Shown one piece after another: positions 38,268-41,243 of a stretch of 64,000 nt of DNA. The notes below the pieces were generated by a model. It was not told where the DNA came from and did not search any database. It saw only the letters and a list, made by a program, of their open reading frames with translations. Numbering within the stretch: the first letter of the stretch is position 1; every line of letters starts with the position of its first letter. The position numbers and the translations under genes are program-made. Source of the stretch: Fistulifera solaris (taxonomy: Eukaryota); contig AP026128.1 of assembly GCA_030295235.1 (NCBI GenBank), positions 682,001 to 746,000 on the forward strand. The letters are read 5' to 3'.

Positions 38268-41243
38268 TCAGTCATCTTTCAAAACAACCTTTGAAAGAGT
38301 TGGACCAAGAAACAAAGCAGCAGCACCTTCGGACAGAAAATCAGCGTCTTGACGTGAAGATGGCTTGCTTTTCTTCTGCCGACGTTGATTCATTCTCGGC
38401 GATTTGCTTTTATTATTGCTGCTTGGTCCCCACCACCATGAACTAGTCCTATTCATCGGTTGGAACTGAGGGAAAGTGGCAGATCGGATTCCCAGCGCAG
38501 CCTTCACTTGGTCTAGAAACAGTGAAACTCGACCGTCACTCATCCATGGATCATAGAGCTGCTGTTTTGGGTTATCAGCGCTGTCGAAATCAAGCTGTGA
38601 CATGGTAGGAATGCTTCGAGCCCATCTCTGCAAAGAAAGTATCGGCTCCTTAGTCTGTTTGTCGATAGGAAGAAGGGATTCTGGAAGACCTTTTCGCAAT
38701 AGTAAGCAGACTCGCAATCTATCTGCCATGTCGCTCAAAAAATGATGAATTTCCAAATCACTTAGCTGTTGGCGTCTTAAGCGTCTATTTGAGTCATCGT
38801 CGTCTTTCTTTATCATCAAAACCAACGTCGTCCATTTGCTAATCGACACTAAATGAAACGAAGTTGTACTCAATGCTTTGTCTGAACTAACATAATCTTC
38901 CAGTGGAGAGACGGTCACGAAGGGGAAGACGGGATCGCAACTCAAACACTGATCCGCAGGTCCCGATCCTGCTGTAAACGATGCACCCTGTCCAAGATGA
39001 AAGAATGTTGGTGGATGCTCGTGCGCCGTCAAATCATTTTCTGTAGCATCATGTACTGTGGTATCTCTGAAAGTGATTGGATTAGGGTAAATCAGCTCGG
39101 ATAACGGATTCTTTACAAAAGACATGTTTGTCTCGTGAGTGGAGATTTTATCATGACCCTCTTCTTTCTGAGCAGACACGATGTGGGGCGCTTCGTCATT
39201 TCGAAGATATCGTTGTTCATGGTCCTCTTTTGGAGTACCATCATTGTAATTTCCTTCATCGACAATGTCGATGCGGCATGATGAGCACGATGCAAGTTGT
39301 CATCCTCGTCGTGGAAAGCTTGTTCGAGCAATTCGGTCAAAGTTTCCCACTCTGAATGTGGCCAGGGAAGAGGAGACTCCGTGACATCTTGTAAATATTC
39401 CATAGCAGTGGTTGCTATTTTTGACCTTCAAACGTTTTGCGCCCCGAAAGACGTGCATGAGGACTAGGGACTGGTGTGCCATTTGAATGAGTTCCAGGCA
39501 AAATAGTTTGCAAGCTCGAAGTCTTCGAAGACGCCGAGTGAATTGTGCTCCGAATGAAAACTGGCGGCCAGCGATTTTGATCTTTGCTCGGACGAACAAT
39601 GTTGGTCGACAAACAAACTCCTTCCTCTGGATAAAAATTAGATGTTCCTTCAGCATCCAAGATGACTGCTACTGCTACAGGAGGCCCCGATAACTTTTCT
39701 TGGCGACGAAGAAATTCCAGTATTTCATTTTCCAGATCATCGTAACTGTTACTGATTGGAAACTTGGTGTTCACCAGCCCGTACGCCGATGACGCGTGAA
39801 CCCGAGTGCGATCCAAAAATACTGGCAGTGTTGCCAGAATTCTTTTGAAACAAGATTCAAGCCAAAGAGTTTGGCGTGTCTCCTTTGACTTATCAAAGTG
39901 TGACATACTGTGTTGCCATTGACGCATAAGTACAATACTTTCCAAGAACCTGCAGTTTTAACAGACGTAAATTAGTTGAATGTCGAGACGAATGACGGCT
40001 TGCAAGGCGCTGGAAATGATGCGCCATCACAAGTGCTTTTTATCGCATCTGATACTATGTGCAGGGTGGATTAGAAGGTAAACCAGGTGGGTGGTTTCCT
40101 TCCGAGTACGAAATACAATAATAATCACCCCGCAATGAAATACAAAGCAAATCATGTTACTCACAAACACTGTTCCACCGCAAGTGAAGCCTCCAGAGCG
40201 AATTTCCAAGCTTGCACAAGTTGATAGGCGCGTTGAAATAGCGTAGAAAGAGACGGATCTTCAATGGCGTCCAGTCGAGCCAGGACCGTCCCCATGTTGG
40301 TAGCTGCTTTCGCCACTGTCACAGTATCCGTCGATTCATGCAAAGATGACTGAATTCGGATGAACTCACTTTGTGCCGCAACAAACAAGAGCACGGCGTC
40401 GAGTAGCGCACGAACTTTCTGTGCTGCCACGAGAACATCTCCTTGCGAAGACTCGGTCGCCATGACGGGCTCGCACAATAAATGTTGCAAACGAAACAGA
40501 TCTTGGGTGCATCGTTGGTACAAGCCAATCAAAGAAGGATCACGACAGCAATCTGCCGTAAACAGTTCGGCCGCCGCCAATAGCCAGAACGGAGCAGCCA
40601 CGAGGCGTTCCCATTCTTTCTCTAACGCCAAAGCAGAAGGTGAATATGGTGCGGAAACAGATGAAGAAGGGGACTCGGAAGGGGACGAAAAGGGTGACAA
40701 TGAGTGGGATGATATGGGGCTCGCAGTCGATAACATCTGTTGAATGAGTTGCAAAGGCTGAAACACTGGACTTTTCGGCTCACTCAAGTGCCCCCTCTGT
40801 GATTTTGGCGTCGAAGCCGGGCTTTCTGTCTTTTGTAGCAGGTGGCCCGTAGAACGCGGGGTCGCCATGGATTCGAACCGCGCGCAGGCCTTTGCGACTG
40901 AAGATGCGGTCGGCGTCGCCAGATCGTCGAGAAAATCCGGTAGAACTTGTGCCAACTTCAAGAGAGCCAGTGTCAGAAATGGCCTTGCGCTTTTCGGTTC
41001 ACTATTCTGAGGAGAATGGAAAGCTTGATGGGCGCGCGGATAAACATTGCTCTCTAGGGGACGCAACACAACATACGATCCTCCACGTCCGGATGTATCC
41101 ATGCTATTCTGTCGAACTAGTAATGATCTCCCCATAGAAGGAGTAGGAGGATTCACTACACCGAACTGTCGCTTCGATTTCATGGGTAGTTTCCATGAGG
41201 GCGAAGCAGGAGCGGCCGGTATTGTATTTGTGATAGGCGACAT
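38268..41243 (-). CDS. KICSTOR subunit 2 (C12orf66/KICS2)-like protein; intron 39950..40164; frameshifts near 39420 and 39180
   Basis: Colinear similarity to recalled human C12orf66 blocks: WERLVAAPFWLLAAAE, LLFVAAQSEF, DPSLSTL...ALEASLAVEQCLFLESIVLM, EILEFLRRQ...VAVILDAEGTSNF, WPPVF and TSFHLVSISKWTTLVLMI...FLSDMADRL. Confidence 0.6.
39978..40135 (-). ncRNA. Intronic H/ACA snoRNA, SNORA21(ACA21)/snR10-like, with two LSU pseudouridylation guides
   Basis: Hairpin 1, box H ATAGTA (40058-40053), hairpin 2, box ACA (39983-39981). Pocket GGGTG + TAATCCA matches LSU UGGAUUG-UU-CACCC. Pocket AAAAAGC + CGTC matches GACG-UU-GCUUUUU. Each pocket lies ~15 nt from its box. Confidence 0.85.

Follow-up and report, generated by a model that had tools for sequence, protein, structure and literature searches.

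Introduction

ACA21, or SNORA21 (RF00412), is a two-hairpin, intronic box H/ACA small nucleolar RNA (snoRNA) that guides the modification of two sites in the large-subunit (LSU) ribosomal RNA. In chicken, where it appears as GGgACA45 in intron 3 of RPL23, the 5′ hairpin is assigned to 28S-3886 through 6+5 pairs and the 3′ hairpin to 28S-3955 through 6+4 pairs, the latter site being equated with that of yeast snR10 and plant snoR74 (PMC2653536). These two chicken positions are 69 nt apart; the snR34/U65 site at chicken 3912 lies 43 nt before 3955 (PMC2653536), which is the spacing between 2880 and 2923 given in PMC2879522. Human 28S U4401 is listed as a target of ACA21 in PMC3542256. Yeast snR10 guides Psi2923 in the A loop, in the region of the peptidyl-transferase centre; as described in PMC2879522, its guide lies in the 3′ hairpin, Psi2923 is its single modification target, and its 5′ hairpin, which has a large internal loop, uses a 7-nt element to act in 18S processing. 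Here we describe a predicted box H/ACA snoRNA at positions 39978..40135, minus strand, of a 64,000-nt stretch of the diatom Fistulifera solaris (contig AP026128.1 of GCA_030295235.1, positions 682,001 to 746,000). This whole stretch is called the window below, and positions are counted from its first letter.

Like ACA21, the candidate is a two-hairpin H/ACA-type RNA in an intron, and its 3′ pocket fits the site that ACA21 serves with its 5′ hairpin (28S-3886, human U4401; PMC2653536, PMC3542256). The second target of ACA21, 69 nt downstream, is the A-loop site that an earlier note on this DNA, made from the letters alone, had proposed for hairpin 1. That note had the SNORA21 target pair right, since the 69-nt spacing of the two proposed sites equals that of the chicken ACA21 sites tabulated in PMC2653536. 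Of the two sites, the upstream one fits canonically here; a fit at the A loop requires an insert of 22 nt in the 5′ pocket. The differences from ACA21 are several: no covariance model matches the candidate even at E≤10; ACA21 directs its 5′ hairpin to U4401 and its 3′ hairpin to U4470, whereas here the upstream site falls to the 3′ hairpin; the guide is split 4+8 instead of 6+5; and an RNA of about 155 nt sits in a KICSTOR-subunit-2-like gene, as against 131 nt in RPL23 intron 3. Unlike snR10, whose A-loop guide lies in the 3′ hairpin, the 3′ hairpin here fits a different uridine, the complementarity of the 5′ loop to a stand-in ribosomal RNA is at chance level, and again there is no Rfam match. 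The kinship with SNORA21 and snR10 claimed in the earlier note, as an ancient guide RNA, was thus not borne out, there being no Rfam match at E≤10 and a hairpin order unlike that of either RNA. The candidate works like one half of ACA21/SNORA21 and is not placed in that family.

Two further guides are comparable in part. ACA-Eh-LSU2997a/b of Entamoeba histolytica are predicted protist H/ACA guides whose site corresponds to human 28S U4401, with one target in the table of PMC3542256; the likeness is one of target alone, and by this prediction the U4401 site is guided outside animals too. Plant snoR74, listed as a counterpart of the A-loop guide (PMC2653536), is likened by name alone.

Results

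A predicted two-hairpin RNA within a confirmed intron

The intron at 39950..40164 (minus strand) is 215 nt long, is bounded by GT and AG, and lies in phase 2. P0001, an 873-amino-acid hypothetical protein of F. solaris, matches the junction residue for residue, with AVEQCL on one side and FLESIV on the other: its tblastn segments stop at 40164 and restart at 39957/39949, and the protein is continuous across the gap. The extent and strand of the intron are therefore as the earlier note had them. Mean intron lengths in four other diatoms are 108–159 bp (PMC12803021), so that 215 nt is long, not extreme.

Within the intron, positions 39978..40135 fold as a hairpin, AUAGUA (40058-40053), a second hairpin, and ACA (39983-39981) followed by three bases, which reproduces the order that had been claimed. 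The 158-nt RNA so delimited, whose ends are predicted and which includes the ACA and the three bases after it, occurs once in the window. Its folding energy is −48.5 kcal/mol (z −3.66; 1 of 200 shuffles as good), and that of the whole intron is −58.3 kcal/mol against −45.2 ± 4.1 for shuffled sequences (z −3.22; 0 of 200 as good). Hairpin 1 folded alone is more stable still relative to its shuffles (z −4.47, 0 of 200 as good). AUAGUA (40053..40058) stands at the hinge and fits ANANNA, and ACA (39981..39983) follows hairpin 2 at the predicted 3′ end, which is the layout of the H/ACA class. In both hairpins the upper stem's base lies 15 nt upstream of its box, AUAGUA or ACA, within the 14–16 nt of the class and in agreement with the earlier estimate of about 15 nt.

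All of the stems named in the earlier note are present in the folds. In hairpin 1 the lower stem is a 9-bp helix of UGCGGGGUG (40126..40134) with CACCCUGCA (40060..40068), found in both the minimum-free-energy (MFE) and the centroid fold. Above it, the 5′ side of the internal loop is a long strand of 22 nt (40104..40125) that contains a weak 4-bp mini-hairpin; next come the upper stem and loop (GGAAGG-AAACCA / UGGUUU-A-CCUUCU; 40073..40103) and the 3′ pocket strand UAAUCCA (40067..40073). Hairpin 2 has a lower stem of 40043..40050 with 39985..39991, a 5′ guide strand UAAAAAGCA (40034..40042), an upper stem and loop (CUUGUGA-U-GGCGC / GCGCC-UUGCAAG; 39999..40033) and a 3′ guide strand CCGUCAU (39992..39998), its upper stem ending 15 nt before ACA. 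One base separates each guide segment from the hairpin-2 upper stem: A102 after AAAAAGC, and C138 before CGUC. Three of the four pocket strands that had been proposed, UAAUCCA, AAAAAGC and CGUC, thus lie in pockets beside the upper stems. The fourth, GGGUG (40130-40126), does not; in the MFE and centroid folds it is paired within the lower stem of hairpin 1, 22 nt upstream of the upper stem. A reading of the RNA as a small Cajal body-specific RNA was dropped, as the apical loops CCCACC and AUCAUUUCCA contain no CAB-type motif in the form in which we know it.

Conservation between versions of the locus

Assembled contigs of four sequencing runs were aligned to 39600-40500 at 80% likeness; one of these, run X5, gave no coverage of the intron. 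Run X1 contains two versions of the locus, one of them identical to the window. The second version differs in the exon at 18 of 160 positions in 39600-39759 and at 15 of 198 in 39742-39939, or 8–11%. Contig record 5 of this version (39910-40118) carries 8 substitutions and 1 deletion, and all of them fall within 39945-39980. The remaining 138 nt, 39981..40118 (minus strand), are unchanged between the two versions. The 3′ edge of this block falls at ACA to the base, 39980 being the first base after ACA and different in the second version. Constraint is in this sense limited to the RNA, with 0 differences over 39981-40118, a span that leaves out its 5′-most 17 nt, against 8 and a deletion over 39945-39980. 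By our own arithmetic, the probability of 138 consecutive unchanged bases at about 8% divergence is near 1e-5.

The other edge of the block can be placed from the way in which contigs end. Elsewhere in the same table the distance between a contig end and the closest difference is 30 nt to the base (39909 for a difference at 39939; 39772 for one at 39742). The two versions fork in records 6 and 7, which start at 40089, and with a contig overlap of 30 nt the first difference on the 5′ side should lie at 40119, in hairpin 1 within the long strand of the 5′ loop. Record 6 (40119-40328) has 20 differences, reported as a count. Run X2, a metagenome from a different study, also contains two versions of the locus. 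By the same 30-nt overlaps, its contig ends imply that nothing separates these over 40056-40135 and that they diverge again at 40136, one base beyond the predicted 5′ end of the RNA; they further imply a difference at 40055, which is the fourth and free (N) position of AUAGUA. Contigs of runs X1 and X2 show no joints at the intron and have no bearing on expression.

We read the two X1 versions as subgenome copies, because P0001 is 92% and not 100% identical to the window and an allopolyploid genome with 9007 homoeologous gene pairs has been described for F. solaris (PMC5935921). The argument would stand just as well if they were divergent alleles. Judged from the assembled contigs, this conservation is the strongest evidence that the element is probably a snoRNA.

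The 3′ pocket fits a known H/ACA target site

Eukaryotic LSU sequences for comparison were obtained by scanning prokaryote assemblies with an A-loop-anchored pattern, which returned 37 eukaryotic contaminant LSU pieces, taxonomically unassigned and many of them identical. The same approach to viral contigs, with an A-loop 14-mer, gave 118 loci and no ribosomal DNA (rDNA). For scoring we used L195, a full rDNA unit in which the small-subunit, 5.8S and LSU RNAs were placed by Rfam and which offers 1267 U sites; it is a stand-in and not the diatom. L195 (G001:C4:6500-16300; also L146 and L147) comes from an assembly labelled as a Bryobacteraceae metagenome-assembled genome, where tandem fungus-like rDNA units about 10.2 kb apart represent contamination. 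The unit looks fungal, and its LSU contains a group I intron (RF00028, 109.5 bits). At each U, the bases on its 5′ side were paired with the 3′ pocket strand and those from U+2 onward with the 5′ strand, contiguously, a Watson-Crick pair counting 1 and a G-U pair 0.5.

The best of the 1267 sites for the 3′ pocket is LSU 2935, GACG[U]UGCUUUUUG, with 4+8 pairs and a score of 11.5; the next best scores 8.5. Here CGUC of the 3′ guide strand pairs with GACG, and eight bases of the 5′ guide strand pair with GCUUUUUG. Shuffled guides reach 11.5 at LSU 2935 itself in 104 of 200000 trials. The pattern GACGU-N-GCUUUUU is present in 30 of the 37 LSU fragments, N being U in 23 of those, and in 3 others it occurs as a variant with A replacing the second G. 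The earlier proposal that this pocket matches GACG[U]UGCUUUUU of LSU therefore holds. Its name for the site, helix 89, is one that we take to be right. The LSU 2935 site is 69 nt upstream of the A-loop U.

The match also agrees with what is reported of guide pairing, for which 8 bp is the experimental minimum and the 5′-most unpaired U is the one modified (PMC6049503). The 12 pairs of the 3′ pocket exceed this minimum, and they form the bipartite arrangement around an unpaired U-N that is typical of the class, in stand-in LSUs; the 5′-most unpaired U is the U after GACG.

Possible targets of the 5′ pocket

Assignment of hairpin 1 is less certain. The earlier note had both pockets active, with the 5′ hairpin guiding the A-loop U (the yeast Psi2923 equivalent) and the RNA as a whole serving the ACA21/SNORA21 target pair: UAAUCCA would pair with UGGAUUG, GGGUG with CACCC, and the intervening 22 nt would be looped out. 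We regard this as possible, with somewhat more to be said against it than for it. When the insert may have any length, the best L195 site of the 5′ pocket is indeed the A-loop U, LSU 3004, UGGAUUG[U]UCACCC, with 7+5 pairs, a 22-nt insert and a score of 11.5, and shuffled strands match that score at the A-loop site in only 128 of 200000 trials (~6e-4). The site is exactly 69 nt from that of the 3′ pocket, which is the ACA21 spacing (PMC2653536). The geometry of the 3′ strand is also suitable: the 15 nt to the H box are accounted for by 7 guide pairs, 7 pairs of the lower stem and 1 nt. The A-loop U is the first U left unpaired, in keeping with the 5′-most-U rule (PMC6049503).

The 5′ strand is where the A-loop proposal falters. 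GGGUG belongs to the 9-bp lower stem, 22 nt off the upper stem, and using all five of its bases leaves a stem of 4 bp. It pairs with the RNA's own CACCC, so that only 2–3 pairs with ribosomal RNA are possible without opening the lower stem. We know of no H/ACA pocket with such a 22-nt insert. Free insertion, moreover, lets shuffled pockets equal the score somewhere in 152 of 300 trials, and the A-loop match is therefore notable solely for its location. The same 3′ strand fits a second LSU site canonically; because UGGAUU occurs twice in LSU, the coincidence shrinks to that of a 5-mer somewhere in a 27-nt stretch. In ACA21 and snR10, finally, the A-loop guide is the 3′ hairpin (PMC2653536, PMC2879522). 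The A loop is the best site if insertion is free; the pairing is non-canonical and no more than suggestive.

Read canonically, the 5′ pocket would instead direct AAUCCA and UACU(C) to a domain-II site, UGGAUU[U]GAGUA, a reading that we consider unlikely. This is the best canonical match in L195, at LSU 780, where it forms 6+4 Watson-Crick pairs or, in the alternative register, 5+5, with strands that adjoin the upper stem. The exact 12-mer is found also in G002, at a position that, judged from coordinates, is consistent with the rDNA contig of L153. The yeast equivalent of LSU 780 presumably lies near Psi776, a known pseudouridine guided by snR80. Scores of 10 or more were, however, obtained with 266 of 1000 shuffled pockets, and the target column of the Rfam LSU consensus is a variable lower-case c, so that the diatom may lack a U there. 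G003 and G005 contain no match at ≤1 mismatch and G004 matches at control level (9 versus 10), from which the site is not conserved. The rest of the probability for hairpin 1 goes to an orphan or purely structural hairpin. A processing-type element in the 5′ internal loop was considered and rejected: the longest Watson-Crick match to the stand-in ribosomal RNA is 8 nt, a length equalled or exceeded in 165 of 300 shuffles, which is chance.

The host gene and its neighbourhood

The host gene lies on the minus strand. Exon 1 (40165..41102) corresponds to P0001 residues 1-313 at 92% identity by tblastn, and exon 2 (38271..39949) matches at 87% identity in three frames relative to P0001. The two frame changes, at 39415-39430 (between GQK and IATTAM) and 39248-39256 (between MKE and NYNDGT), coincide with A runs that look one base short, apparent 1-nt losses for which homopolymer miscalling in the assembly is the probable cause. 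Were they real, this copy of the host gene would be broken and the intron RNA kept. The sole confirmed intron of the gene is the one that contains the RNA.

No Pfam family matches the host exons in the window or P0001. A language-model look-up returned KICSTOR C12orf66-like clusters at 0.89, a lead only, and an exhaustive search found 130 relatives of P0001. An alignment of P0001 with 24 full-length and N-terminal relatives (25 sequences) was compared as a profile with the PDB, and matched the KICSTOR subunit 2 chains 25gf_D (E 1.8e-9) and 9o5a_F (2.1e-9) over about 300 positions. PF09404 appears below threshold in 2 of the 25 aligned sequences (at best E 0.0081 and 15.3 bits, where the cut-off is 22). 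By profile, the host family would be a diatom relative of KICSTOR subunit 2 (C12orf66), a scaffold of the metazoan mTORC1 pathway. The suggestion that the RNA is hosted by a non-ribosomal, putative TOR-pathway gene is accordingly in line with the resemblance found, and 'putative TOR-pathway gene' is a reasonable label by homology.

Among the 130 relatives, the best-matching stretches begin at query residues 310-317 in about 26 and end at residues 311-316 in about 20. This suggests that many relatives may share an intron, or a break in the gene model, at about residue 313 of P0001. Upstream of the host gene, at 42165-42815 (minus strand), lies a gene for a GINS complex SLD5-like protein (PF05916, E 3.3e-9).

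Discussion

Taken jointly, these observations make it probable that the intron encodes an H/ACA snoRNA and that the target of its 3′ pocket is the GACG[U] site in LSU. According to general knowledge of H/ACA RNAs, the host pre-mRNA would be spliced, the lariat debranched, and the intron trimmed by exonucleases to release an RNA some 155 nt long (minus strand, about 39981-40135), shielded by Cbf5/dyskerin, Nop10, Nhp2 and Gar1 bound to the two lower stems and to the H and ACA boxes. The pocket of the 3′ hairpin would then clamp GACG-UU-GCUUUUUG of the LSU between CGUC on its 3′ strand and UAAAAAGC on its 5′ strand, and the U after GACG, near the catalytic centre of the subunit, would be converted to pseudouridine; the organism's own LSU would be expected to contain this site. 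The 5′ hairpin, which is very stable and equally conserved, may act on the A-loop U through an unorthodox pocket, act on another U, or form a structural half of the ribonucleoprotein.

Several observations weigh against assigning the element to the snoRNAs, or temper the evidence for doing so. A loose H/ACA rule, which asks for two hairpins (upper stem ≥6 bp, lower stem ≥5 bp), ANANNA, ACA and 14–16 nt spacing, was applied to both strands of the window and to 40 dinucleotide shuffles of it. It found 3 places in the window, and the shuffles gave 0–4 each, with a mean of 1.4. At such a rate in shuffled sequence, the bare architecture is weak evidence; conservation and target complementarity raise this RNA above chance, and architecture alone does not. 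The two other places that the rule detects, 41583-41709 (minus; z −1.66) and 50321-50443 (plus; z +0.33), show no folding advantage over shuffles and were set aside as chance. No Rfam family reaches its gathering score anywhere in the window, and in 39900-40220 none appears even at E≤10. Hairpin 2, which carries the guide, scarcely beats its shuffles when folded alone (z −1.29, 16 of 200). The significance of its target match is modest when any site counts, with 65 of 2000 shuffled-guide trials reaching 11.5. The LSU sequences stand in for the organism's own and are not independent of one another. The contigs, being assembled, may have dropped isolated variants inside the unchanged block; of the 12 differences that the second X2 version shows in 39913-40085, 7 are unplaced and some of these may fall in hairpin 2; and X1 is possibly the same sample as the window. 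Lastly, no orthologue was recognised, by eye and without folding, among 37 metagenome loci that match a guide-and-box pattern of 23 specified bases. Five of these loci (L160, L163, L164, L172 and L184) are near-identical, share a 106-nt pattern spacing, and look like a coding region of an unrelated organism.

That the element is no snoRNA at all, its H/ACA look arising by chance and the identical block reflecting gene conversion, a regulatory or splicing element, or some other structured RNA, is agreeable to the frequency of the architecture in shuffles, the lack of an Rfam match in the window and the variants that assembled contigs may hide, but is improbable given a conserved block that ends at ACA to the base, X2 contig ends that indicate the predicted 5′ end, a fold of both intron and RNA far beyond shuffles and in this unlike the other two places, and a 3′ pocket whose top site in ribosomal RNA is a known H/ACA target in other eukaryotes (PMC2653536, PMC3542256).

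For hairpin 1, the more adventurous interpretation is an unorthodox pocket, with GGGUG atop the lower stem and the loop bulged out, through which diatoms and vertebrates would share a target pair with the hairpins swapped; this we hold to be a tentative proposal, doubtful as it stands. A bolder variant would have the single 3′ strand serve two LSU sites that share UGGAUU, by way of alternative 5′ segments.

Without an active unorthodox 5′ pocket, this would be an ordinary intronic snoRNA. Our search of the literature, where most papers were judged by title, found no catalogue of diatom H/ACA snoRNAs, and the parts of PMC4247016 and PMC7671301 available to us add none. If the candidate is validated, it would provide a seed for finding this RNA family in stramenopiles, and would show that diatoms, too, guide the pseudouridine on the helix-89 side that ACA21 serves in vertebrates. 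Should the A-loop assignment hold, the rules for how a pseudouridylation pocket may be built would be wider; and if the unorthodox pocket is real, either an ancient linkage has been permuted by reshuffling of the hairpins, or diatoms and vertebrates have converged on the same pair of targets.

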